Below, one piece after another: positions 23,554 to 36,681 of a DNA stretch of 56,105 nucleotides. A program made the position numbers and the translations under genes. The stretch is from Chitinophagales bacterium (GTDB lineage: Bacteria; Bacteroidota; Bacteroidia; Chitinophagales; BACL12): positions 1 to 56,105 of the forward strand of contig JBJXHH010000076.1 in assembly GCA_046160675.1 (NCBI GenBank), in the 5' to 3' direction. Every line of letters begins with the position of its first letter. The first letter of the stretch is position 1. A model generated the notes under the pieces. It did no database searches. It was not told the DNA's origin and saw only the letters and a program-made list of their open reading frames with translations.

Positions 23554-24456
23554 CTAAATCTTTTCAGCTATGCGCATCTTTGCACTTCTGCTTCTCGGGT
23601 TGTTTTTTATTTCTGTATCATCTGGTTCAATCGGTTTTTTAGTCATGATCTGAAAATACTTTTTCTTGTTTCCTTTAAAATCCTCCTCAATAACTCCTTC
23701 CGTATTGCCTGTCTTTATAAGGTTTTTCACAATTCTATCTTCCAGGGAATGATAACTTATCACCACTAATCTTCCTCCGGGTTTCAAAACTTCTTTAGAG
23801 GCTTCAAGCATTTCTTTTAATGCGTTCATTTCATCATTTACTCCAATCCTTATTGCTTGGAAAACCTGTGCTAAATATTTATTCAACTCACCTTTCACAA
23901 CTGTTATGATTATTTCTTTCAGGTGACCAGTAGTTCGTATTTCTCCTGCCATCCTGTTTTTTACAATTGTCTCACTCAATTGCTTTGCATTTCTTATCTC
24001 ACCGTATCTGCTGAATATTTCCTGGAGTTGTTTCTCGCTGTAAGAGTTGATGATATCTTTTGCTGAAATTTTTTGCGAAGTATTCATCCGCATATCCAAC
24101 TGTGCATCAAACCTTGTGGAAAATCCTCTCTGTGCTTCATCAAACTGGTGACTTGAAACGCCGAGATCGGCAAGAATGCCGTCCACTTTTTGAATGCCGT
24201 GGAGTCGGAGAAATTTTCTGATGTAACGGAAATTCTCTCCAATCAGCTGAAACCTTGCATCATTAATTTTGTTTTCAACAGCATCTGTATCCTGGTCAAA
24301 TGCAAATAGTTTTCCCTGAGTGCTTAATCGTTTTAAAATTTCTCTGCTGTGGCCACCACCCCCAAACGTAACATCAACATAAATTCCATTTTCATTTTTT
24401 AGTAAAGCATCAATGCTCTGATGTAAAAGAACGGGTATGTGATAGGTGTTACTCAT
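23554..24456 (-). CDS. rsmH: 16S rRNA m4C1402 methyltransferase
   Basis: HIPVLL, DVTFGGGGHS, DLGVSSHQ, SYHSLEDR, NPRSRSAK; ATG at 24456 preferred (ORF open to 24468). Confidence 0.97.
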   Translation of the reverse strand: MSNTYHIPVLLHQSIDALLKNENGIYVDVTFGGGGHSREILKRLSTQGKLFAFDQDTDAVENKINDARFQLIGENFRYIRKFLRLHGIQKVDGILADLGVSSHQFDEAQRGFSTRFDAQLDMRMNTSQKISAKDIINSYSEKQLQEIFSRYGEIRNAKQLSETIVKNRMAGEIRTTGHLKEIIITVVKGELNKYLAQVFQAIRIGVNDEMNALKEMLEASKEVLKPGGRLVVISYHSLEDRIVKNLIKTGNTEGVIEEDFKGNKKKYFQIMTKKPIEPDDTEIKNNPRSRSAKMRIAEKI

Positions 24457-24907
24457 GCGGAGATCCACCCATTACTTCTTCGGCTAATCCTGCATAATCA
24501 TCCGAACTCTTGCTTTGCATATATATATTATATGTATTCTGATCCCAGATCTCCCAGCCATCCTGCATAGGCACCAATACAATGTCTTTTTTTATGCTTG
24601 CATGATCTGTTAATATTTTTGGCAGGAGAATACGATCACTTGCATCGGGTACAAGTGTGGTTACTGCTGACTTGAAAAAGCGAACGAAATCCCTGTTCTT
24701 AGTTATGAAGGTGTTCACCTTGCTCAGCTTTGCATCAATCTTTTGCCATTCATTTTCTGGGTAAAGCATCAGGCATTTTTCAAAACCCTTATTTACAACA
24801 AACCTTCCCTCAGCCTCTTCCGGCAAGCCTTTAATGAGGGCGGCAGGCAGTTTTATGCGCCCCTTCTCATCAATTGTGCATGGATAAAAGCCTATTATTC
24901 CCGACAC
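24449..24907 (-). CDS. mraZ: Transcriptional regulator MraZ
   Basis: IDEKGRIKLP and DASDRILLP repeats; first gene of dcw; GTG start. Confidence 0.93.
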   Translation of the reverse strand: MSGIIGFYPCTIDEKGRIKLPAALIKGLPEEAEGRFVVNKGFEKCLMLYPENEWQKIDAKLSKVNTFITKNRDFVRFFKSAVTTLVPDASDRILLPKILTDHASIKKDIVLVPMQDGWEIWDQNTYNIYMQSKSSDDYAGLAEEVMGGSPHE

Positions 24908-24950
24908 TGAGTTTTGGTTTTGTGGATAATGAACGTAAAAGTATGTTTTT

Positions 24951-24990
24951 TATTCCACTAAACTCCAAATTTTCCCATTTTTTACCACCA
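24951..24990 (-). promoter_or_regulatory. MraZ operator (four direct repeats, 10-bp period)
   Basis: Minus strand GTGGTAAAAA-ATGGGAAAAT-TTGGAGTTTA-GTGGAATA; CCA on the + strand at 24955, 24965, 24975 and 24985. Confidence 0.75.
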
Positions 24991-25161
24991 AGTTTTTTTC
25001 AACAAAATTCCCACACTCTGATATAAACACGGTGTGGGAAACATAGAAACCCGTTTGAGGAAAGGGTTCTAACAGATAAAGAGAGGATTGAATTATACAG
25101 AAATTAACATTACATGGTGGAAGAAAAGGCGGCTTTTTGAAAGTGGTAAAACATTTCTCAC

Positions 25162-26469
25162 TCAAAAAAAACTTATATCATCATGCAGATCTTTAATGGA
25201 GCCGAAGCCGATAACATCCTTTAAAACAGGTTCGTCGCTGAGTTCAGAGGCAGGAATGATCTTATCTGTGCCGAATTTATCTTTAATAGAATACACGGTT
25301 TTGCGCAGTGTATCTTCTTTCATTTTATTGCCAAACAAAGAGTATTGCACATATTTATCCTCTACAAAATCAGATACCCAGACACCGATACTGGTTATCC
25401 GTTTATTGATCACATCCTCAAAATTGTTTTCCTCAGAATGTTTTTCCATGCGCTTACGCAGTATTTGCATAATTTCTATTCCGCTTTGGATTGGTTGTGA
25501 TGTGATGATATGGTCATCATACCTTTTTATTTCTTTCGTGTACCAGCCGGTTTCTTCATAAGAACAACTGATGCCGAATTTTTTTGCAAATACACTGTTA
25601 CGCACCATTCTTCTCTCCAGAGTCATGCATAGGGAAAGAAATAATTCATTTAATACTTCAATATTTTTCCTTTGTTCTTTTGATACTTGCCGCATGTTTT
25701 GCATGTTCTTATAACCATGTACCTGCATATCCACCTCCCGAAAATTCAGGCGATAATTCCAGTGCAGGCCTACAATACTTTTGCAAACTCTTTTCAACCT
25801 TTCGGCAGAAGCATAACGCAATTCAAGTGGTGTATGAATGCCACCTCTGATAAGTCTTTTACTCATACCGTCTGCTATGCCCGGAAGGTCAGTGAGTTTG
25901 AGTTTGCTGAGATGTTCATCAATGTTGTCCGGGGTGATCAGACATATTTCATCTGTGCCCCCAATATCAGAACCGAGTTTTGCAAGAAAAGCATTGGGTG
26001 CCACACCGATGGAACATTTTAGATAGTCGCCCACTTCATTTTTTATGTCCTGCTGAATTTGTTTTGCTACTGCAACGGTGTCTTTATAAATAAGATCATA
26101 CCCGTTCAGGTTTACTATGGCCTCATCAATGCTTTTAGGAATTACATTATCTGAATATTTTTTCAACACCTCCATAATCTTTACATGAAACTCCCGGTAG
26201 CGGGTGGGGTGTGTTTCCAGCGGCACAAGTTCCGGGCAGATTTTCATTGCTTCATCTAAGCGCAGGCCCAGGCCAATTCCTTTTTTCTTTGCTTCAATGG
26301 AAGATGAGATCACACAACCGAACTGACCTGTATAAACACAAACACCAACGGGCCTGTGGCGCAACCAGTAATTTACCTGCTGCTCACAGGTAGCAAAAAA
26401 GCTGTTCATGTCTACAAACAGAACTGAGGGCTTCAGGTTTTGGTGTTGATGGTTGAAGTTTGGAAGCAT
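25162..26469 (-). CDS. dinB: Y-family translesion DNA polymerase (Pol IV-like)
   Basis: FVDMNSFFA, SIEAKKKGI, SIDEA catalytic acids, SIGVAPNAFLAKL, QYSLF clamp-like motif. Confidence 0.88.
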   Translation of the reverse strand: MLPNFNHQHQNLKPSVLFVDMNSFFATCEQQVNYWLRHRPVGVCVYTGQFGCVISSSIEAKKKGIGLGLRLDEAMKICPELVPLETHPTRYREFHVKIMEVLKKYSDNVIPKSIDEAIVNLNGYDLIYKDTVAVAKQIQQDIKNEVGDYLKCSIGVAPNAFLAKLGSDIGGTDEICLITPDNIDEHLSKLKLTDLPGIADGMSKRLIRGGIHTPLELRYASAERLKRVCKSIVGLHWNYRLNFREVDMQVHGYKNMQNMRQVSKEQRKNIEVLNELFLSLCMTLERRMVRNSVFAKKFGISCSYEETGWYTKEIKRYDDHIITSQPIQSGIEIMQILRKRMEKHSEENNFEDVINKRITSIGVWVSDFVEDKYVQYSLFGNKMKEDTLRKTVYSIKDKFGTDKIIPASELSDEPVLKDVIGFGSIKDLHDDISFF

Positions 26470-26483
26470 GGTATTTTGTTTCC

Positions 26484-26510
26484 CGTAGATTACGCTGATG
26501 GCGCAGATGA
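26484..26510. repeat. Three imperfect 9-bp tandem repeats between the DUF5131 gene and dinB
   Basis: CGTAGATTA CGCTGATGG CGCAGATGA. Confidence 0.45.
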
Positions 26511-26518
26511 AAAATTAA

Positions 26519-27244
26519 TTAAGCTACTTGGCGATGAGGTCTCATCACAGGCATTTCATCATAAGTTCTTCCGTTCAAAATTCTCCCGGCTTTCTTTTTA
26601 TTTGCCCCTCCCCATTGTTTGAAAAAGAATTTCACTTTCTGTTTCCTACATTGATTTTTTATATCAATTACCCACTCTTTAGCCATTGGTCTTGCTTTCC
26701 TTCCGCTTTCCCCGCCAACAATTACCCAGTTTATGTTCTCTAGATGTAAGTTATTGAGAGGGCCAATCAGTGGTTCGCAGGAAAGAAATTTGGTTTTCGC
26801 ATTTGTACCCCGAAGAAAATCTATTCTGTCAATTACTTTTTCATCTTCTACTGAAACTCCCATCCAGATATTTTCACTCCAATTTAACTTATCGTGCAAT
26901 TCATAAAGACGCTCAGCTCTCTTTGTCAAAATCTGGTAAACATGTTCTGTATCATTCATCACTCCAAAAACTTTTTTGATAAACTCCAGTGGCACATCTT
27001 TATGAAACAAGTCACTCATGGAGTTTACAAAAACAACTTTCTGTTTATTCCAGGAATAAGGGATATGAAGGGCATCTTCATGCAATCGTAATTTAAAAGC
27101 ATCTTTATATTTTTCAATTCCCATCGCCTGCAAGCGTTTCGCCATTACTTCAGCATAACAGTATTTGCATCCTGCCGAGACTTTATTGCAACCCGTTGTC
27201 GGGTTCCAGGTCATTTCAGTCCATTCTATTGATGATTGAGACAT
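26519..27244 (-). CDS. DUF5131 / phage Gp37-Gp68 family three-Cys protein
   Basis: IEWTEMTWNPTTGC-x6-CKYCYA, FVNSMSDLFH, QILTKR, SCEPL, WVIVGGESG, FFKQWGG. Confidence 0.92.
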   Translation of the reverse strand: MSQSSIEWTEMTWNPTTGCNKVSAGCKYCYAEVMAKRLQAMGIEKYKDAFKLRLHEDALHIPYSWNKQKVVFVNSMSDLFHKDVPLEFIKKVFGVMNDTEHVYQILTKRAERLYELHDKLNWSENIWMGVSVEDEKVIDRIDFLRGTNAKTKFLSCEPLIGPLNNLHLENINWVIVGGESGRKARPMAKEWVIDIKNQCRKQKVKFFFKQWGGANKKKAGRILNGRTYDEMPVMRPHRQVA

Positions 27245-27246
27245 AG

Positions 27247-28371
27247 TTATTTAAATTTTACAGTTGCTGTGTATGTTATTTTCTGTTTCCGGTTACCTTT
27301 TATGTCTATTAGAAATATTTCATCCTTACTTAACAATTGTTTAATTGCTTCTTTATAATTTTCTTTGATATAATTTGTTCCGTAATTATGTTCTAAATAT
27401 ATGTCCTCAATTTTCTTGTTATTAAATCTAGCTTTATCATCCCGTAAAAGTGTAATTAGATTAACTATTGAGTATTTATTTAGTTCTGGGAATAATGTAG
27501 GTGAAATTGGCAAATTTGCGCCGAACATAGGAACACCATCCCCCTGAAAATCACTATACTTCTGCATTATTTCTTTTGCTCTCGTCAATGCAATATTAAC
27601 CTTCGAGACAAAATAAAGATAATGGCTTGATTGATCTCTATCAGGAAAATTAATTTTAAATCTTAAAGTCTTATAATTTTTTTCCTTAAATATACTTTCG
27701 AAAATTTCTAATATGAATAATTCCCTTTTATCTGGGTTTCTTTCAAGTTCATAAAATTCTCTAATTTTATCTAAATCATCTTCGAAAATTTCCTGCATGT
27801 TTCTTTCGACAGACTCATTTATTACTGCCATTCGTATTCGGTTGATATTGAACAGTACGAATAGATCTGAACCCCAACTTCTTATTGCTTCAAGTAACAT
27901 CTTTTTGGTATAACCATACCCTAATGGATCAATAAAAGTCAATGATGGAACACCTCTTCTTAAAATATTTACCAAAAGAGAATGGGCTGCCTCTTGTTGA
28001 AAGATAACTGGTTTGTGAGTCAATTCATTGTAAAAGGTTAACGATGTTACATTAGCAATCAATTTTTCAATAATTTTGGGCTCATCATCATTAAAAAATG
28101 TTTTGACACTTTTATCATAATCAATAAAATCATTCCCTTTACTCTTATAAATGCTATTCAATATTTTTAGTGGTGTTGATATATTTCCATCCTCATATTT
28201 GCCGGTTCCAGCGAACAAATCAATATATGCTAATTCATTAATGCTTTTATAAGATTGTCCCTTCAACATTATCGCAGCCCATGCTTTAAAATATTCAACT
28301 AAAATTTCTGATTTTATTTCAGATGTGTCTCTTTGTTTTTTGAAAAAGTTTTCGGGAGATATTCCAGCCAT
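27247..28371 (-). CDS. tcmP: Three-Cys-motif partner protein (TcmP family, methyltransferase-like)
   Basis: K-x-x-IL-x-x-Y start, YIDLFAGTG SAM-binding loop, FIDPLG; 2 nt upstream of the DUF5131 gene. Confidence 0.8.
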   Translation of the reverse strand: MAGISPENFFKKQRDTSEIKSEILVEYFKAWAAIMLKGQSYKSINELAYIDLFAGTGKYEDGNISTPLKILNSIYKSKGNDFIDYDKSVKTFFNDDEPKIIEKLIANVTSLTFYNELTHKPVIFQQEAAHSLLVNILRRGVPSLTFIDPLGYGYTKKMLLEAIRSWGSDLFVLFNINRIRMAVINESVERNMQEIFEDDLDKIREFYELERNPDKRELFILEIFESIFKEKNYKTLRFKINFPDRDQSSHYLYFVSKVNIALTRAKEIMQKYSDFQGDGVPMFGANLPISPTLFPELNKYSIVNLITLLRDDKARFNNKKIEDIYLEHNYGTNYIKENYKEAIKQLLSKDEIFLIDIKGNRKQKITYTATVKFK

Positions 28372-28384
28372 AAAATATTTTTCT

Positions 28385-28392
28385 CAAATTTA
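28385..28392 (-). promoter_or_regulatory. Possible internal -7 promoter element (TAAATTTG) for tcmP
   Basis: TAnnTTTG on the minus strand 13 nt upstream of the tcmP ATG. Confidence 0.35.
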
Positions 28393-28402
28393 TAAAGCCA
28401 TC

Positions 28403-29206
28403 TTAATTCCTTTCAATACTATCCAGCCTGCTTTTTAAAATACTCACTTGCATCGTTAAATCGCCTACTAACTTATCCAGGTCATTTTTTTTCACAGGCA
28501 TATAATTGGAAAGTTTGCTTTTTACATACCAGAGTTCTTTTATTGCTTCGGCATCTACAGCTATTTCGGGGTAGGCTTCATTATCGCTCAGTAGGTAAAT
28601 TTTATTCTCTGATTGAAGTTTATTGATTACTCTTTTCACCAACACATTATCATTAGTAACCACAACATGTATGTATCCCTCCCGGATATCTTTTGTAAAA
28701 TCATCACAAAACCGTGCAATCACATAGTCGCCATGCTGCAGAGTATCCTGCATACTATCGCCCTCAATTTGAAAACAACGGAAAGTCCCATTTCGGTAAT
28801 CGGTGCCTGGCAATTTAAATGCGGGCAGTTCTTTATAAAATTCAGGTTCAAGAAATCTTGTCGGGTATCCTGCGGCTGCTTTGGTATCTACCATCACAAT
28901 ATTTTCCTCGCCAGCTTCATCAACAGTGATCACAAACGGACGATAAATAATAGTGCCACTGCCTTGTTCAACATCTTTTGTAGAAACCTTCTTCAACTGC
29001 TTTGACAGGTCTTTATGGAGGAGTTCGTCTAGCGAAACGTCAAATATTTTGACAATTTCAAGCAAGGTTTTATGTCCCGGGTTAGCAAGGTTGGCTTCAA
29101 TGTTTGCTACTGCGGTTCGCCCTACGCTCAGCATGTCAGCAAGTTCCTGCTGGCTCATCTTTCTTTTACTGCGTAAGTGTTTGAGGTTCTTTGCTAAATG
29201 ATTCAT
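28403..29206 (-). CDS. XRE-HTH + S24 peptidase repressor (LexA/CI-like)
   Basis: NLKHLR...SQQELADMLSVGRTAVANIE HTH; AAAGY Ala-Gly cleavage site; EGDSM catalytic Ser; LVKRV catalytic Lys. Confidence 0.9.
   Translation of the reverse strand: MNHLAKNLKHLRSKRKMSQQELADMLSVGRTAVANIEANLANPGHKTLLEIVKIFDVSLDELLHKDLSKQLKKVSTKDVEQGSGTIIYRPFVITVDEAGEENIVMVDTKAAAGYPTRFLEPEFYKELPAFKLPGTDYRNGTFRCFQIEGDSMQDTLQHGDYVIARFCDDFTKDIREGYIHVVVTNDNVLVKRVINKLQSENKIYLLSDNEAYPEIAVDAEAIKELWYVKSKLSNYMPVKKNDLDKLVGDLTMQVSILKSRLDSIERN
29039..29053. promoter_or_regulatory. Candidate repressor operator within the repressor gene (GTCA-N7-TGAC)
   Basis: GTCAAATATTTTGAC. Confidence 0.5.
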
Positions 29207-29239
29207 AAGAAAATAATTTTATCAACAAGTATTGAAATT

Positions 29240-29277
29240 GTCAAATATATTGACTTTTTTTGTCAAAAATAATGACA
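29240..29277. promoter_or_regulatory. Two tandem candidate operators (GTCA-N7-TGAC) in the divergent promoter
   Basis: GTCAAATATATTGAC (29240-29254) and TGTCAAAAATAATGACA (29261-29277). Confidence 0.7.
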
Positions 29278-29280
29278 TTT

Positions 29281-30354
29281 ATGGAAATTCCAAAAATTGA
29301 AGAAGAAAAATTTCTAAAAGGCCGGGGAGCGCAGATAAATCCTTTTAACCCCTTTCATGATAATAATTATGTGCAGGAGCATATTGAAGGGTTAGATGAG
29401 GAGATGATTACGCCGAGGGAGACTTTGTTTTTTACAGATTTTCCTAAAAATGCTTTGAACAAGGTGGAAAGCCCCGATTCGGGAATGATGTATTCCATCA
29501 ATCCCTACCAGGGCTGCGAACATGGTTGTGTCTATTGTTATGCAAGAAACTCTCACAACTATTGGGGTTTTAGTGCTGGGCTGGATTTTGAAACAAGGAT
29601 TATCGTAAAACCCAATGCGCCCCAGTTATTAGAAAAGGTTTTTTTGAATAAAAATTGGAACCCCTACCCGATTCATATTTCAGGCAACACAGATTGTTAT
29701 CAACCTATCGAAAGAAAAATGAAAATCACACGGACTATTCTTGAAGTGTGTTTGAAATATAAAAATCCGGCGGGTATGCTTACAAAAAATCAGCTCATAG
29801 TCCGTGATATTGATATACTTGGTGAACTTGCAAAAGAAAGATTGATTCACACATTATTGTCAGTTACAGCCCTTGATGAAAACATCAGGCTGAAGTTGGA
29901 GCCGAGAACTGCTACCTATAAAGCAAGATTAAAAACAATGGAAAAACTTGCACAAAATGGAATTCCTGTTGGTGTGATGATAGGCCCGATTATTCCCGGG
30001 CTCACAGATCATTTTCTACCCGACATTATGAAAGCTGCTGCCGATCATGGTGCACATACTGCTGTATTTACGATGCTGCGGTTGAACGGAGCTATTGCTC
30101 AAATTTTTACAGATTGGATCTATAAGACTTTTCCTGATCATGCTGACAGAGTTTTGAGCAATGTGAAAGCAGTTCACAACGGAAAACTGAACGACAGTCG
30201 TTGGGGAAAAAGAAAACGAGGTGATGGTGAGCTTGCTTTTGCCATTCAACAAATGTTCTATTTAATGAAGGAAAAATACATGGGGCATTACCCTCCATTC
30301 GCTTTTAATTTAAAGGCTTTCAGAAGACCGGGGCAAATGCAATTAGAATTATGA
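29281..30354 (+). CDS. PA0069-family radical SAM protein (spore photoproduct lyase-like clade)
   Basis: KGRGAQINP, SINPYQGCEHGCVYCYAR (CX3CX2C), GLDFETRI, NTDCYQP, LEPRT; ATG at 29281 preferred over TTG at 29260. Confidence 0.9.
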   Translation: MEIPKIEEEKFLKGRGAQINPFNPFHDNNYVQEHIEGLDEEMITPRETLFFTDFPKNALNKVESPDSGMMYSINPYQGCEHGCVYCYARNSHNYWGFSAGLDFETRIIVKPNAPQLLEKVFLNKNWNPYPIHISGNTDCYQPIERKMKITRTILEVCLKYKNPAGMLTKNQLIVRDIDILGELAKERLIHTLLSVTALDENIRLKLEPRTATYKARLKTMEKLAQNGIPVGVMIGPIIPGLTDHFLPDIMKAAADHGAHTAVFTMLRLNGAIAQIFTDWIYKTFPDHADRVLSNVKAVHNGKLNDSRWGKRKRGDGELAFAIQQMFYLMKEKYMGHYPPFAFNLKAFRRPGQMQLEL

Positions 30355-30378
30355 CTAGAGTTTTTCTGTGTCACCTTT

Positions 30379-30409
30379 TATCAATTTGGCGAATACAAAT
30401 TGATATTTT
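30379..30409 (+). terminator. Probable terminator after the radical SAM gene
   Basis: TATCAATTTG-7 nt-CAAATTGATA followed by TTTT (AT-rich stem). Confidence 0.5.
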
Positions 30410-30607
30410 AGCAATCAATTGTATATTGATATGTGTCAGGTATTTACAAATAAGAAAAACATCTTATAAGCAGGAAAGTATGTAAAATAAGCTATTCGCT
30501 GGTTTTCTGAACCCATATGCAGCTATTTAATTTGTCACAAAGGTTATTTTCAAGTAATTCAATCTCATTATATTCGACTTAAATTTGGAGTAAGAAAATA
30601 CACACAC

Positions 30608-31147
30608 ATGAACTCTTTCTACCCAAAAAACCCAAGCAGAGGATTGCTATTTACAGGAACATTTCTTTTCCTGGCATGCGCAATTTCAAATGTTCAAGCA
30701 ACAATTTCTATTGTTTCTTTTACAGGCATTCAAAATCAAACAACTGTTGAGCTTGAATGGGTTACTGCTTCAGAAGAAAATACCGGGCAGTTTCTAGTAC
30801 AACGATCAACGGATGGTATAAACTGGGAAACTATCTCCAGTTTGGAAGCAGCAGGGTTCTCATCGGAAAAACTCTATTATACTTATGAGGATGGTATAAC
30901 GCCTGATATTGAATATATATATTATAGACTTGAGGTAGTAAGTGCGGATGAAAATAGTTCAATTTTCTCAGACATTATTCCGATTAGGTTAACTAATAAT
31001 ACACTGACCGAAGATACTGAGCAAGTTACTTCGATATATTACGACCTATCCGGCAGGTCTTATACAGTTCTTACAAATGCGCCTTCGGGAATTTATATCG
31101 CCATCGCAGGTACGAAACGAAGTAAGATCTATTTCTCACAGAATTGA
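30608..31147 (+). CDS. Small secreted protein with one FN3/Ig-like domain and a short T9SS-like C-terminus
   Basis: Signal peptide; SFTG...VELEWVTASEEN...VQRSTDG.NW...YYRL domain common in T9SS cargo; YDLSGR...GIYI tail. Confidence 0.65.
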   Translation: MNSFYPKNPSRGLLFTGTFLFLACAISNVQATISIVSFTGIQNQTTVELEWVTASEENTGQFLVQRSTDGINWETISSLEAAGFSSEKLYYTYEDGITPDIEYIYYRLEVVSADENSSIFSDIIPIRLTNNTLTEDTEQVTSIYYDLSGRSYTVLTNAPSGIYIAIAGTKRSKIYFSQN

Positions 31148-32010: not shown

Positions 32011-35000
32011 CTATCTCAATAAGGTTAGGTTTCCGTATGCAATTATCTTTTCACCACTTAAACAAACCGCTTCAATTGAATAAACATACACATCCTGATT
32101 GCAAAGTTTTCCCTTAGAAGTTCCATCCCAGCTTGCATATGGGTCATTTGTAGAAAATATCAGCCCGCCAAGTCTGTCAAAAATCTTATATCCTGAAACA
32201 CTTTCTAATCCTTCATATTTTATACTAAATACATCATTAAACCCATCGTTATTCGGTGTGAATAAATTGGGTATTGCGAAGAGACTCACCTCACATCCTT
32301 TTACATTAATAAAAGCGAAATCAGTGTCGGAGCAGCCAAATTGATTAGTAACGATAACACTGTAGAGTGTTGTAACATTTGGTGAAACATTAACACTTGA
32401 ACATGTATTACAGTCTATATTATAATCAGGCATCCATGCATAACTCATGGTATTTGAAGAAAAATCAGTTACAGTTGTATTTAACACAAGTGGGTCCTGG
32501 CCAATAATGTATAAAAGGGAGTCTTCAATAATATTTACAACAGGAGGGTCGTTTACAGATATATAGGCTGTATATGTTTCGATTAGGTTTCCACATGTTG
32601 CTTCCACAGTATAACTAATATCATTTGTGGGAATGCTGTATGGGTCTAACGAATAACTATCTGATAAAAATGTGGAGGGCGACCAGACATAATTAATGAA
32701 TCCTTCATTAACAGAATCTGTAAAATCAACAAACAAAGAAACAGTATCACCTATACAAATATCTGCATCAGAACCTGCAGCATTGATTAGGTTATTTATG
32801 ACAGATATTGTTGTTGATGTGTCAGAAGTACAATATCCATTATCCGCTATTACGGTGTAAGTAGTTGTGGTAATTGGCGATGCGATCGGGTCATTAATGT
32901 TTGTTGCTGAAAGGCTATCAGTTGGTGACCAGGTATAAGAAACAGCTCCATCAGCGTAAGCACTTAAAGAAACCGATAAACCGGGACAAATTGTAGTATC
33001 AGGCGAAATCATAATATCGGGATACTCAAGGGCAGTTACCAGAATTTCCATTTCATCTGTACATCCAAAAATCGTTTCAACCGTTAAGCTTGTATTATAA
33101 ACCCCAGGGTTCGTATAAACATGATTATAATTAGAGGATGAATCCGAAGAAATACTTAAATCCCCTAAATCCCAAAACCAACTTATCAGCTCATCGGGCC
33201 CCGAAGAACTATCTGTAAATGTTATCTCCTGACCAGTACAGATTGTAAGTTCTGAAACAAAATAATTTGCTGTTGGTAAGCCTCCAACTTCAATGGTATC
33301 ATTTGCGAGAAAAATATTAGAGCACCCTGCACTATCCGTAACATATGCTGAAATATAAAATGTTCCTGTATCTGAATAAATATAAGGGATTGTATATGTT
33401 GAATAAACATCTGTATAAAGTATGTCAGCATTATAAGTATTCCCATCTCCAAAAAACAATGATACTGTATCTATTGAAGCTCCATTTAAATAAAAGGAAA
33501 CGGCATCACCAATACACAAGCTATCATCGCTGATAGAAATATTCCCATAAGGGCCGGGAACGAGAGTATAACCATCTATTATGACCTCTCCGGAACACCC
33601 GTTTGTGTTTGTAATGATAACTGAAACCGTATATTCTCCAGCACTGATATATGCATGAATTGGTTCTGCTTCTGATGATGTGTAGCCATCCCCAAAATCC
33701 CATTCAAAACTTTCCAGGCTGTCAGCAGATTCAACAAAAAATTGAACTAAAGCATAGTTACAACTTGAAATCAAAATATCTGAATTGATTTCTCCCAAAA
33801 CTGTATCGGAAACAATTGATTCAAAGACTTTACTATCTGTACATCCATTAATGTCAGTAACAGTTAGAGTGACCGGGTAAGAGCCAATATCTGAATAGGA
33901 GTGAGATGGGAAACTATCCGTAGAAAAGCTGCCATCGCCAAATTCCCATGAGTAATCAATATCATAACCTGTTACTGTTTCATAAAAAAACACTTCTTCA
34001 TTAAGGCAGGGTATTGTATCTGAAATATAAAAATCTGCGAATGGTTGAGAAGCAATAATTTCAACTGTATCGTATGCAATACAACCCAACTCGTTAATTA
34101 CTGTCATAGTAACATTATAATAATTCTGAGTTGAATAGGTATGCGTCAAATCATCCACATCCGAAGCAGAATAAAATGTATCAATAGTACCATCATCCCA
34201 ATTGATTGTCCAAGATGATATATCAGCTCCTGATGAAACAGATAGATCAGAAAATTCTGCATCAAAAGGTAAACATCCCCCATAATCTGGAGTAAACAGT
34301 GAAGCGGTTATTGAACTTAAATATACGGTATCGCTTGTAAAAGCTGTACAACCTCTTGAATCTGTAATTGTCAGTTCCACAATAAATTGACCCGGAGAAA
34401 AATAAGTGTGGGTTGGATTATCTAAAGTTGAATAATACCCATCCCCAAAATCCCATTGATATGTTAATCCAGCGTCAGAAATACCGTCAGTTGAAAAATT
34501 CGAAAAATAAATTGCACCTGGCACATAACATCTCACTTCAGGTACGGCAATAAAATCAGCAACCGGTGTCTTTATAGTAACATATATTCCCAATCCCTGG
34601 CAAGGATCGGGTGTAATACAATAATAAGTCACCGTTACATGATATGTACCCGCAGCTGAATATGTGTGCGTAGGATTTAGTGATATGCTATCTGTGGTTC
34701 CGTCTCCAAAGTCCCATAACCACCCACAACTGGAATCTGCAAGTACTGGGTCTATAAATAATTCGACGGTGTAAGGATCTGTACAATTATATGTTACACT
34801 TAAGTTAGAATCATCAACATCAAGAATATGAATATCAGAAGAAATTGTATCTGTACATCCATTATTCCAAGTTATATAATCTACTGTGTGATCCCCTGGT
34901 GGAAGTGTAATAACAGTTGACGAACTAACTGGTGATGTTGACGCATAATCTAATCCACCATCAATTATTGCAGTAATAGAATCTAAAGGTAAATAATCCA

Positions 35001-36681
35001 CTTCTAACATTACTCCGGGGCAAGATGAATCAGGTATAACCAAAAGTGCAGTAAGTGTATCTCCAACACAAATCATATCATTTATATATACTGTATCACT
35101 ACAACCATTTACACTTGAGGCTATTAGCGAAACATCAGTACATCCAACAGTAGAATATAAATGAGTTGGGTTTGCGGCAGTTGAAGTTGTGCCATCCCAA
35201 AAATTCCATAAATAAGTTGTTAAAGCTTCAGAGCCGGTAGCACTAAAAGTTGTGGTTAACGGAAAACAACCTTCAGGTGGGAACGCATTTAAAACTAAAT
35301 CCAATTCACCAATTGTAACAAGGTCAGGAAGAGAATAGGTTGATATACAACCTCCTGTTGTAGATACAGTAATACTTACGTCAAAATCACCTGATTGATT
35401 CCAGGTATAAGTTGGATTTAACATTGATGAAGTAGAGGTGAATCCATCATCTTCAAATGACCATAATACTGTAGAATAACTGCCACTTATAGTAGGTGTA
35501 AAAGAAACACTGAAAGGTGTTTCGCAAACACTTGAGGGATCAGTATAAGTATATGTTACCAAAGGAGGTTCCTCAACTGTAATCAAATTCACAAAACTAA
35601 TACTGCCGCTGCATCCTCCTCCAAAATCAGCATCTAATGAAACTGTATATACACCCGGGCCGGGGTATATATGACTGGGTTCAAATAAGGTAGAAGTTGA
35701 CCCATCACCAAAATTCCAAAGCCATGAACCAGTTGATGAACCGCTCAAATTATCAAAGAATATCTCTTCACCATCGCATATAATTGTTTCTGAAGGAATA
35801 AAATTGACAATTGGGCTGGCATTTATTTGTACATAATCTGTAAATACTTCAGTATATATACATCCATTATTATCTGTAACTGTTAATGAAACATCATAAG
35901 AGCCATATGACGTATAATTATGTGATGGGCTTGTTCCAACTGAAGTAGCACCATCCCCAAAATCCCAGAGATAGGTTAGAGGTAAGACTCCAGTGCTTGT
36001 ATTTGTAAAGTTTATGTTTAATGGTGTTGCACAAGAAATAGAAGCCGTTGATGTAAAAGAGGGCTCTGGCCAATCATAAACTGTTACCTCAACGGTGGCA
36101 AAATCTTCACACCCTGCATCATCTTCAATAAATAAATAAACATAATATGTACCCGGAGTATCAAAAGTATAGGTGAGTGTGGGATCTGAAGGTAAAGTTC
36201 CCGAGCCGAAAATTACCCAGTAGTAACTACTTATTGCTCCATAAGAGCCCGGAATAGAAGTATTTGAAAATGAGGTTGTGAAGGGAGCACAACCTTCTAG
36301 GTCTGAGGCTGAAATAGAGGCTGTGGGTGGACTATGGACAGTTGCAAATGCCGGGATAGTCAAAATATCCGTCGAACCACCAGAACCTGTAGCAGTTAAG
36401 GTTACAGTATAATCACCAACTGAATACAGAAAAAAAACGGGTTCAAATAAAGTTGAACTGCCTACTAATGAGCCAGTGGGATCATAAACCTCCCAGTAAT
36501 AAGATGTGGCACCGGTTGAATTATTTATTAGGACCAATTCCAGAGATAAACATCCATCAGTTGTATCGGAACTAAAATTTGCAGAAACCTGACTATTTGC
36601 CTTTTGACCAATAGTTAGAAAAATGATCAGAAGTAAACTGATAATAACTCTACTTAAGATATTAAACTTAAAGATAGACAT
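32011..36681 (-). CDS. Large PKD-repeat surface protein with T9SS type-B (gliding-motility-associated) C-terminal domain
   Basis: Signal peptide; six WxFGDG motifs plus variants; C-terminal IPNLFTPNNDGFNDVF...IFDR.G...WDG...VYVY...GNLTLLR. Confidence 0.92.
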   Translation of the reverse strand: MSIFKFNILSRVIISLLLIIFLTIGQKANSQVSANFSSDTTDGCLSLELVLINNSTGATSYYWEVYDPTGSLVGSSTLFEPVFFLYSVGDYTVTLTATGSGGSTDILTIPAFATVHSPPTASISASDLEGCAPFTTSFSNTSIPGSYGAISSYYWVIFGSGTLPSDPTLTYTFDTPGTYYVYLFIEDDAGCEDFATVEVTVYDWPEPSFTSTASISCATPLNINFTNTSTGVLPLTYLWDFGDGATSVGTSPSHNYTSYGSYDVSLTVTDNNGCIYTEVFTDYVQINASPIVNFIPSETIICDGEEIFFDNLSGSSTGSWLWNFGDGSTSTLFEPSHIYPGPGVYTVSLDADFGGGCSGSISFVNLITVEEPPLVTYTYTDPSSVCETPFSVSFTPTISGSYSTVLWSFEDDGFTSTSSMLNPTYTWNQSGDFDVSITVSTTGGCISTYSLPDLVTIGELDLVLNAFPPEGCFPLTTTFSATGSEALTTYLWNFWDGTTSTAANPTHLYSTVGCTDVSLIASSVNGCSDTVYINDMICVGDTLTALLVIPDSSCPGVMLEVDYLPLDSITAIIDGGLDYASTSPVSSSTVITLPPGDHTVDYITWNNGCTDTISSDIHILDVDDSNLSVTYNCTDPYTVELFIDPVLADSSCGWLWDFGDGTTDSISLNPTHTYSAAGTYHVTVTYYCITPDPCQGLGIYVTIKTPVADFIAVPEVRCYVPGAIYFSNFSTDGISDAGLTYQWDFGDGYYSTLDNPTHTYFSPGQFIVELTITDSRGCTAFTSDTVYLSSITASLFTPDYGGCLPFDAEFSDLSVSSGADISSWTINWDDGTIDTFYSASDVDDLTHTYSTQNYYNVTMTVINELGCIAYDTVEIIASQPFADFYISDTIPCLNEEVFFYETVTGYDIDYSWEFGDGSFSTDSFPSHSYSDIGSYPVTLTVTDINGCTDSKVFESIVSDTVLGEINSDILISSCNYALVQFFVESADSLESFEWDFGDGYTSSEAEPIHAYISAGEYTVSVIITNTNGCSGEVIIDGYTLVPGPYGNISISDDSLCIGDAVSFYLNGASIDTVSLFFGDGNTYNADILYTDVYSTYTIPYIYSDTGTFYISAYVTDSAGCSNIFLANDTIEVGGLPTANYFVSELTICTGQEITFTDSSSGPDELISWFWDLGDLSISSDSSSNYNHVYTNPGVYNTSLTVETIFGCTDEMEILVTALEYPDIMISPDTTICPGLSVSLSAYADGAVSYTWSPTDSLSATNINDPIASPITTTTYTVIADNGYCTSDTSTTISVINNLINAAGSDADICIGDTVSLFVDFTDSVNEGFINYVWSPSTFLSDSYSLDPYSIPTNDISYTVEATCGNLIETYTAYISVNDPPVVNIIEDSLLYIIGQDPLVLNTTVTDFSSNTMSYAWMPDYNIDCNTCSSVNVSPNVTTLYSVIVTNQFGCSDTDFAFINVKGCEVSLFAIPNLFTPNNDGFNDVFSIKYEGLESVSGYKIFDRLGGLIFSTNDPYASWDGTSKGKLCNQDVYVYSIEAVCLSGEKIIAYGNLTLLR

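Follow-up and report, generated by a model that had tools for sequence, protein, structure and literature searches.

What brings two genes of no known function into the middle of what looks like an SOS operon, and what might their products do there? The question is raised by positions 25162..30354 of contig JBJXHH010000076.1 from a Chitinophagales bacterium (assembly GCA_046160675.1), a stretch of 56,105 nucleotides (nt) that is called the window below. Here a tcmP gene and a DUF5131 gene, members of two widespread families that form a pair without a known function or a solved structure, lie between a repressor gene and a gene for a Y-family DNA polymerase, an arrangement that an initial annotation, made from the letters alone, had described as an SOS-like cassette. 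On balance we think it probable that the locus is an SOS-type operon under a non-canonical LexA, in which the inserted pair acts on DNA in a repair-type pathway. The parts of this reading differ in strength: control of the pair by the neighbouring repressor is very likely, a repair-type rather than a defensive role is a close call that we put just below the point of balance, and a defence function under damage control is possible and clearly less favoured. What probability remains is shared among hitch-hiking cargo, an RNA substrate and a phage anti-restriction modification.

The cassette consists of four minus-strand genes taken from the list of open reading frames (ORFs): the HTH-S24 repressor of non-canonical LexA type (28403-29206, 267 amino acids (aa), HTH_3 and Peptidase_S24), tcmP (27247-28371, 374 aa, TIGR04474), DUF5131 (26519-27244, 241 aa, PF07505) and the Y-family DNA polymerase (25162-26469, 435 aa, IMS and IMS_C). 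They are co-oriented in this order, and the gaps recomputed from the ORF coordinates, 31, 2 and 49 nt, are those originally reported. The divergent PA0069-family (SplB/COG1533-like) radical S-adenosylmethionine (SAM) gene of the initial annotation is likewise present as a plus-strand ORF at 29260-30354 (NF033668, 449.1 bits against a cut-off of 360), and its product carries the CX3CX2C cluster motif as C86-X3-C90-X2-C93, numbered from the TTG at 29260. The likely start is the ATG at 29281 (29281-30354; MEIPK..., compare MEFPK... in the relative G002) rather than this TTG, so that the divergent intergenic region measures 74 nt. A terminator-like site was looked for on the minus strand from 24400 to 30700, and none was found.

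The SOS character of the locus starts from its repressor, which combines HTH_3 (2.7e-11), Phage_CI_repr (4.4e-05) and Peptidase_S24 (5.7e-15) matches in Pfam. Along 28403..29206 (minus strand), a phage CI-like HTH_3 domain at the N terminus is followed by the S24 peptidase domain, and the protein closes with a helical tail. The original call of an HTH-S24 repressor is confirmed, and the protein is predicted to cleave itself: in an alignment with canonical LexA and other HTH-S24 proteins, A112-G113, S151 (in GDSM) and K191 (in VKR) fall at the Ala-Gly site and the Ser/Lys dyad of self-cleaving S24 repressors. Orthologues occur in five genomes of the same family at 89, 73, 70, 67 and 64% identity. 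In earlier work, gel shifts with the non-canonical LexA of Bacteroidota showed control of the SOS response, SplB is given as a member of the SOS regulon in this phylum, and the operators bound have a dyad-spacer-dyad form (CTAA-N5-TTAG, GGA-N5-TCC and a diverged TTAC-N5-GTAA) (PMC8565304). The domain make-up of our repressor matches that of these gel-shift-validated proteins (PMC8565304), and in silico it belongs as an orthologue to the non-canonical LexA type of Bacteroidota, its predicted operators being conserved. Short S24 genes beside PolY in Chitinophagaceae loci were also considered as repressors and were rejected, being S24-only and UmuD-like by Pfam. UmuD-like, S24-only genes of 142-146 aa that adjoin umuC in Chitinophagaceae-type loci, among them L009:2968-3402 and L134:12020-12454, have GDAM in place of GDSM and R-R in place of K-R; since the catalytic Ser and Lys both seem to be replaced, we suggest that these are UmuD homologues unable to self-cleave.

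Two operator-like palindromes lie in the divergent promoter region. O1 (GTCAAATATATTGAC, 29240..29254) contains a -7-type box on the minus strand (TATATTTG, 29242-29249), 35 nt upstream of the repressor ATG, and O2 (GTCAAAAATAATGAC, 29262..29276), 22 nt from O1, ends 4 nt before the likely PA0069 ATG. A third palindrome (GTCAAATATTTTGAC, 29039..29053) lies inside the repressor gene, in the conserved coding stretch EIVKIFD, and its conservation may for this reason be due to coding. The three are the only occurrences of GTCA-W7-TGAC in the 3.2-Mb assembly (29039, 29240, 29262) and all fall within 224 bp at the locus, against a genome-wide expectation of about 1.9 from a mononucleotide shuffle. 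G002, G005 and G009 have two GTCA-W7-TGAC sites upstream of lexA, 21-22 nt apart, together with one intragenic site. We infer from this layout an autoregulated divergent promoter with predicted operators, which would be derepressed by damage; GTCA-W7-TGAC, as a predicted operator, would add a third operator type to the non-canonical LexA family. The regulatory half of our reading is well supported in silico, and repressor binding, damage induction and co-transcription are what it would lead us to expect.

The region upstream of lexA varies within the family. Between PA0069 and lexA, G003 (L103) packs six GTCA-N7-TGAC sites into some 150 nt, three times as many as other family members, and in the same-genus G001 (L100) tandem imperfect repeats of about 30 nt (TATAAG...AGGGA...) replace the two operators, at a place where the contig ends. 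Elsewhere in the assembly of the window, umuD and umuC (141 and 420 aa) form a cluster at C70:7376-10344 with two more ORFs, one of 171 aa and one of 252 aa whose beginning, MC, is all that makes it SRAP-like; upstream of this cluster none of the tested operator motifs was found, and a direct repeat TTCCTGTT lies there instead. A genome search allowing at most one mismatch returned four sites that look intergenic, none of them at umuDC, and at C117:27641 one such operator-like site (GTCAAATATATTTAC) lies between a 165-aa ORF and a 154-aa ORF, upstream of the latter.

How the pair came to be here is suggested by the same locus in relatives. The same-genus G001 has lexA>PolY(417 aa)>DnaE2(1011 aa)>mraZ>rsmH, G003 has PA0069<>lexA>PolY>DnaE2, and G009, from another genus of the family, has PA0069<>lexA>TcmP>DUF5131>DUF559>PolY>DnaE2; in the window, mraZ follows the polymerase gene after 254 nt, and then come rsmH and the cell-division cluster. 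Of 61 relatives 8 have DUF5131, as do 2 of the 27 genomes in the family, and it was not found in G001, a genome 89% complete. The lowest G+C of the region (0.316, at 27001-28000) is at tcmP. Between the window's own genome (G000) and G009, identity is 75% for TcmP, 80% for DUF5131, 70% for LexA and 64% for PA0069, and the greater similarity of TcmP than of LexA or PA0069 hints at lateral spread. By this comparison, tcmP-DUF5131 is not ancestral at this locus and is best read as a mobile insertion just behind lexA. An arrangement unique to this genome would have told against the initial annotation, and the same order recurs in G009.

The polymerase has a history of its own. It is of the Y family by Pfam (IMS 1.4e-37, 129.3 bits, and IMS_C, with D20, D115 and E116 present), and it stays under the cut-offs of all NCBIfam DNA polymerase IV models, its best score being 170.4 bits against 381. 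It belongs to a broad Bacteroidota clade named DNA polymerase IV by the sources (55-88% identity among the 120 matches listed). Searches of 18 other genomes of the family did not find it, whereas 3 of 12 further families within the order have it; its orthologue in G028 has two CTAAATATTTTAG sites just upstream. No dnaE2 was found in the assembly, where tblastn with the DnaE2 of G001 returned only a 26% identical DnaE-type match on C226. With the pair inserted, a polymerase of another clade in place and no dnaE2, the cargo behind lexA has been exchanged in this lineage, and the locus clearly exemplifies such a swap in an SOS operon between close relatives. The reading first proposed is partly supported: the LexA-type repressor and the recurring SOS contexts described below speak for it, while the pair turns out to be a mobile insertion and the polymerase is not the one linked to lexA in relatives (an initial view of it as the orthologue of their lexA-linked PolY was rejected at 17-20% identity in the alignment). 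A second Y-family polymerase, 48-49% identical to that lexA-linked PolY and cut by the contig end, lies at C176:3312-4196.

Is the link between the pair and SOS genes an accident of this genome? We examined the 80 closest DUF5131 loci in species-representative genomes and, because this set is biased towards the query's relatives, drew an even phylum sample of 401 Bacteroidota genomes, in which 85 genomes and 55 of 180 genera have DUF5131 and from which 71 DUF5131 loci were taken. TcmP adjoins DUF5131 in 67 of 79 loci of the closest set, 48 of 71 of the even sample and 45 of the best 80 viral loci, mostly at a gap of -1 to +6 nt, so that the pairing exceeds chance and the initial description of a conserved pair is upheld. 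A survey of neighbourhoods near S24 and polymerase genes, proposed at the outset, shows that tcmP-DUF5131 recurs in several SOS-type operons. In the closest set, 54 loci extend 5 kb or more upstream; PA0069 occurs in 31 of these, an S24 gene likewise in 31 and a Y-family polymerase in 25, with all three together in 22 and one or more in 38. PA0069 is co-oriented upstream of DUF5131 in 40 of the 80 loci, with PA0069>TcmP>DUF5131 consecutive in 25, and CTAA-N5-TTAG occurs within 2.5 kb upstream in 30 of these 40 PA0069-linked loci (background, 0.047 sites/kb); of 34 regions that lie upstream of S24 genes, 19 contain it. A matched control compared 40 DUF5131 windows with 40 others some 100 kb off in the same genomes: S24, PolY or PA0069 lay within about 8 kb in 14 of the former and in 1 of the latter (Fisher p 3e-4, the related genomes not being independent).

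The pair is found in at least five other SOS-type architectures. The dominant form in the closest set is umuC<umuD<>2H-phosphoesterase>(PD-(D/E)XK)>PA0069>TcmP>DUF5131. Three Flagellimonas loci have HTH-S24 lexA<>rSAM-HhH>DUF4130>TcmP>DUF5131 (rSAM, radical SAM), with two to four TGGA-N5-TCCA sites each; in Algoriphagus, TcmP>DUF5131 is convergent with dnaE2<PolY<>HTH-S24; and further forms are canonical LexA>Ogt>UPF0047>...>DUF72>TcmP>DUF5131>...>PolY>DnaE2 and HTH-S24 (216-228 aa)>DUF3795>TcmP>DUF5131. Other genes also recur at these loci: a DUF559 (Vsr-like endonuclease) gene is found in unrelated loci (L086:6871-7284, L048:3018-3404, L118:10814-11224) as a neighbour of either the pair or the S24 gene, DUF72 genes lie directly beside TcmP-DUF5131 in L068, L106, L107 and L151, and one family (L118, L121, L131, L160) has DUF3795 after HTH-S24 and before TcmP. 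Outside the phylum, in Mycobacterium tuberculosis, we take Rv2734 to be the DUF5131 partner of Rv2735c. The cluster Rv2734-Rv2735c-recX-recA is mitomycin-induced in this species (PMC5057432), and Rv2735c is co-transcribed with recA-recX (PMC3062782). BCG_2748c, which is listed beside recX (BCG_2749c) and has a TcmP domain (PMC7387457), is from this place next to recX presumably Rv2735c.

What, then, are the two proteins? The DUF5131 call is secure (PF07505, 324.7 bits against a cut-off of 28.9), and the cysteine motif noted at the outset is present as C19-X6-C26-X2-C29, its three cysteines being invariant in 51 aligned DUF5131 sequences; identity is 65-80% in 48 of the 50 other aligned rows, with outliers at 52% and 33%. 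The best structural match of the DUF5131 model (predicted local distance difference test score, pLDDT, 84.9) is spore photoproduct lyase (4fhc; Z 14.0, root-mean-square deviation (rmsd) 2.9, 194 residues), followed by viperin at Z 11.3 (2.7 Z lower), and the top 22 matches are all radical-SAM enzymes. The protein is thus a predicted radical-SAM barrel, closest in its model to spore photoproduct lyase (SPL), and RadicalSAM.org places DUF5131 as megacluster 5-2 beside SPL in 5-3 (PMC9477430). It also matches TIGR04471, 'radical SAM mobile pair A' (7e-21, 74.7 bits against a cut-off of 355), as the PA0069 protein matches TIGR04470, 'radical SAM mobile pair B' (2.4e-24, 86.2 bits against 410); scores so far below the family cut-offs mean that the window proteins are not members of this mobile pair, and the matches suggest that a partnership of a DUF5131-like with a SplB-like protein recurs. 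Some DUF5131 genes, in L167, L169, L176 and G352, encode 344-442 aa against the usual 240 aa or so and stand in prophage-like contexts with no recognisable TcmP; these long genes may be fusions or may have other partners.

TcmP likewise scores above its family cut-off (TIGR04474, 112.6 bits against 53). The protein (27247..28371, minus strand) has a motif I (D51-x-F-x-G55-x-G57), a motif IV-like D148-P and, at its C terminus, a winged helix-turn-helix domain (wHTH) with a weak match to PF22560 (GMT-wHTH). Only K20, Y27, D51, G55, G57 and D148 are invariant among 50 aligned sequences, and these cover the D-x-F-x-G-x-G SAM-binding motif and the D-P-x-G element at the place of motif IV. TcmP occurs in two forms, one of about 280 aa and one of about 370 aa that has the C-terminal wHTH. 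The best fold match of the model (pLDDT 84.0) is RlmJ (6qe5; Z 15.8, rmsd 3.1, 203 residues aligned), and next come the RlmJ-family protein DUF519 (2oo3, Z 15.6) and Trm1 (Z 14.0). The modelled fold is therefore closest to that of an RlmJ-like class I SAM-methyltransferase, with SAM binding predicted.

Taken together, these observations are consistent with the following mechanism. In undamaged cells the repressor would bind the GTCA-W7-TGAC palindromes, two in the 74-nt divergent promoter region and one in its own gene, and the occupied operators would cover the -7 box of the repressor promoter and abut the start of PA0069. DNA damage would lead to RecA filaments and these to self-cleavage of the repressor at A112-G113, so that both PA0069 and, from the opposite strand, lexA-tcmP-DUF5131-polymerase would be derepressed. 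The tightly coupled mobile pair landed behind lexA, where a DinB-clade polymerase now stands in the place that an imuB-like PolY and dnaE2 occupy in the nearest relative. We propose a DNA-directed two-component enzyme on account of the operons shared with PA0069 (40 of 80 loci), the distant likeness to the 'radical SAM mobile pair', and the fact that the other partners are DNA-repair and damage-tolerance genes. TcmP may be its SAM-binding, DNA-recognising and probably base-flipping subunit that presents a base, on which DUF5131 would act as the radical catalyst, either to reverse a lesion or to modify the base. The two would share a pathway with the SplB-like PA0069 and work side by side with translesion synthesis; the formation of a complex by the two proteins and all of this chemistry are inferred. 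A broader version, which we hold to be possible although less likely than not, is that the pair is a new two-component radical-SAM system on DNA bases, working together with SplB-like PA0069 proteins and deployed by bacteria and their phages in both SOS and defence settings. If so, the pair would reverse or mark damage under LexA control, would mark or attack DNA in restriction-modification (R-M) and defence islands and prophage immunity regions, and would represent an unrecognised radical-SAM branch of the SOS response in about one fifth of sampled Bacteroidota genomes.

A number of findings weigh against a repair-type SOS operon, some of them on the regulatory side. Neither CTAA-N5-TTAG nor GGA-N5-TCC was found in the divergent intergenic region, the contig is devoid of CTAA-N5-TTAG, and the local GTCA-W7-TGAC differs from both validated motifs. 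No perfect copy of the local operator was found outside the locus in the genome, including upstream of umuDC on C70, so the repressor may be a local regulator only. A box in the 31-nt gap, TAAATTTG, is a possible promoter of tcmP itself. Other such findings concern the proteins: the DUF5131 motif is CX6CX2C and not the radical-SAM CX3CX2C, and profile searches against PDB sequences found no significant relative of DUF5131 and no meaningful relative of TcmP among solved chains. The remainder concern where the pair is otherwise found. An SOS-type gene accompanies only 15 of the 71 DUF5131 loci of the even sample, in which SOS contexts are no commoner than those of restriction-modification, defence and mobile elements. 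The strongest objections to a plain repair role are the hypervariable partner, the embedding in Type I R-M operons and carriage by phages.

These last objections are the substance of the rival that survives best, in which the pair serves in defence against phages or mobile elements and has come under an SOS-type repressor, with DNA damage or prophage induction as the danger signal and the repair neighbours reflecting shared regulation rather than a shared pathway. Type I R-M subunits occur in 14 of the 71 even-sample loci (all three in 8), and in L110 and L113 the order hsdR>tcmP>DUF5131>hsdS>hsdM runs on one strand. Other neighbours, toxin-antitoxin genes among them, include AbiJ, Shedu SduA, Eco57I/MmeI-like enzymes, AAA_13, ABC-3C, Schlafen/AlbA_2, HepT, PIN, ParE, IrrE with DUF4411, Fic and integrases; neighbour diversity is high (370 clusters among 453 ORFs) and the distribution patchy (85 of 401 genomes). 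TcmP is only 15-25% identical outside its two closest relatives in the 50-sequence alignment, and such low identity beside the 65-80% of DUF5131 is a pattern more usual in conflict systems. PADLOC models match both proteins, PDC-M30A (5e-16) hitting TcmP and PDC-M41B (1e-127) and PDC-M30B (2.4e-125) hitting DUF5131, in a library without cut-offs whose PDC-M30 and PDC-M41 entries are candidate systems and whose models here match adjacent genes. In addition, SMa2243, which encodes TcmP in Sinorhizobium meliloti, is listed next to hna, a defence gene (PMC12445080), and there is a precedent for one regulator over damage response and defence systems (PMC12392091).

Phages bear on the same rival. 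DUF5131 occurs in 178 of 50,697 phage records, mostly of Mycobacterium and Gordonia phages, and at least 589 DUF5131 stretches were confirmed in IMG/VR, where viral contigs were scanned with the DUF5131 alignment, that of TcmP being too divergent. The best 80 of these at least 589 stretches include TcmP in 45 and an S24 gene in 16, and no PolY, PA0069, DnaE2, SRAP or 2H protein was found in them. A tblastn of the window TcmP against the phage collection gave no match; in the Gordonia phage Angelique, gp43 is TcmP-like by pairwise comparison (E 4e-7), and gp42 (DUF5131) is convergent with this gp43, a 'methyltransferase', between the integrase and the immunity repressor. Set against all this, the PDC entries are candidates and not tested systems, and no test of the pair was found in the covered portions of literature naming PDC-M30, PDC-M41, DUF5131 or PF07505. 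In many genomes LexA operators precede operons that the pair shares with PA0069, 2H phosphoesterase, ogt and imuB-dnaE2, where known defence systems are not usually found, and the nearest fold of DUF5131 is that of a DNA-repair lyase. We consider this defence rival possible, at well below the weight given to a repair-type SOS operon.

Less probable still, and in our view improbable, is that the pair is selfish or neutral cargo that came to lie behind lexA by accident, with its own promoter at 28385-28392 and with expression independent of damage. TAnnTTTG is the -7 consensus of Bacteroidota, and the box that the initial annotation had pointed out at 28385 does exist (TAAATTTG, 28385..28392, minus strand, 13 nt before the tcmP ATG) as a motif match only, in a window in which TAnnTTTG is no commoner than chance (57 matches against about 83 expected). 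The pair's absence from the genome of the same genus and from all but 2 of the 27 in the family, the low G+C of tcmP and the higher identity of TcmP (75%) than of LexA (70%) and PA0069 (64%) between G000 and G009 would all suit such cargo. Chance arrival is opposed by repeated independent capture behind LexA operators in several architectures, by the matched control (14 of 40 against 1 of 40) and by the co-orientation of the pair with the flanking operon nearly everywhere.

An RNA substrate, with an RlmJ-like partner and a radical-SAM enzyme modifying or repairing damaged rRNA or tRNA, would agree with the RNA methyltransferases (RlmJ, the RlmJ-family DUF519 2oo3 and Trm1) that are the best TcmP fold matches and with the 2H phosphoesterase heading Chitinophagaceae operons (a scan of the upstream ORF in 8 loci gave a 2H/LigT-like PF13563 protein in 7, an unlabelled same-strand ORF of 150-260 aa lying directly upstream of PA0069 in 21 loci), and is very unlikely given that the other recurrent partners are all DNA enzymes (translesion polymerases, Ogt, SRAP, a radical-SAM protein linked to uracil-DNA glycosylase, DprA and Type I R-M), that the nearest DUF5131 fold is a DNA lyase and that TcmP carries a wHTH.

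We therefore return to the SOS-type operon with an inserted repair-type pair as the reading to be preferred. Its wider interest lies in the pair being wired repeatedly behind LexA operators that experiments have defined, in the company of translesion polymerases and SplB-like radical-SAM genes, while also standing in Type I restriction operons and prophage immunity regions; the SOS and defence contexts together make the placement of the family in repair or defence directly and cheaply testable. Outside the finding, and 1.7 kb off the cassette, the window holds a repeat-rich 1556-aa minus-strand ORF with an N-terminal hydrophobic stretch (32011-36681).

As to what is known, non-canonical LexA, the SOS control of SplB and of Y-family polymerases, and TcmP-DUF5131 as a named pair and a PADLOC candidate all precede this work. 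In the portions of literature searched we found no function for TcmP or DUF5131 and no SOS link of the pair. DUF5131 is not mentioned in the main text or the one text supplement of PMC8565304, a supplement that, as it also lacks COG1533, is not the regulon tables, which lie outside this scope. Within the same limits we did not find in print the recurrent wiring behind LexA operators, the dual life in R-M operons, the GTCA-W7-TGAC operator, or the SPL-like and RlmJ-like fold assignments.

Several known systems offer close comparisons. In the radical SAM mobile pair A/B (TIGR04471/TIGR04470), A is related to DUF5131 and B to PA0069. The A and B models of PDC-M30/PDC-M41 in PADLOC match both proteins, and many of our loci lie in R-M or defence islands, whereas the pair here and in many genomes, unlike these candidates without a described mechanism, stands in SOS operons. 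Spore photoproduct lyase, the best fold match of the DUF5131 model and its neighbour among the RadicalSAM.org megaclusters (PMC9477430), is compared together with the SplB-like radical-SAM proteins COG1533, PA0069 and Rv2578c; DUF5131 differs from all of these in its CX6CX2C motif and in travelling with, or needing, a methyltransferase-fold partner. The recA-recX-Rv2735c cluster of M. tuberculosis likewise has a TcmP-domain gene, assigned through BCG, in a mitomycin-induced, co-transcribed cluster, but in another phylum and under other regulators, and the covered text of the papers cited for it is silent on the TcmP family. The imuA-imuB-dnaE2 and lexA-PolY-dnaE2 cassettes are represented at this very locus in G001, G003 and G009, which have a lexA-linked PolY>DnaE2, whereas the window's own genome has no dnaE2 after the polymerase and the polymerase linked to lexA in it is of another clade. 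A further comparison is with the non-canonical LexA operons of Bacteroidota (PMC8565304), from which our locus departs in its GTCA-W7-TGAC operator in place of CTAA-N5-TTAG or GGA-N5-TCC, in having no perfect local site at umuDC or elsewhere in the genome, and in the tcmP-DUF5131 pair between lexA and the polymerase, and with which it shares an HTH(XRE/CI-type)-S24 repressor, a palindromic operator in the repressor's own promoter, a Y-family polymerase in the operon and a divergent or nearby SplB/COG1533 radical-SAM gene.

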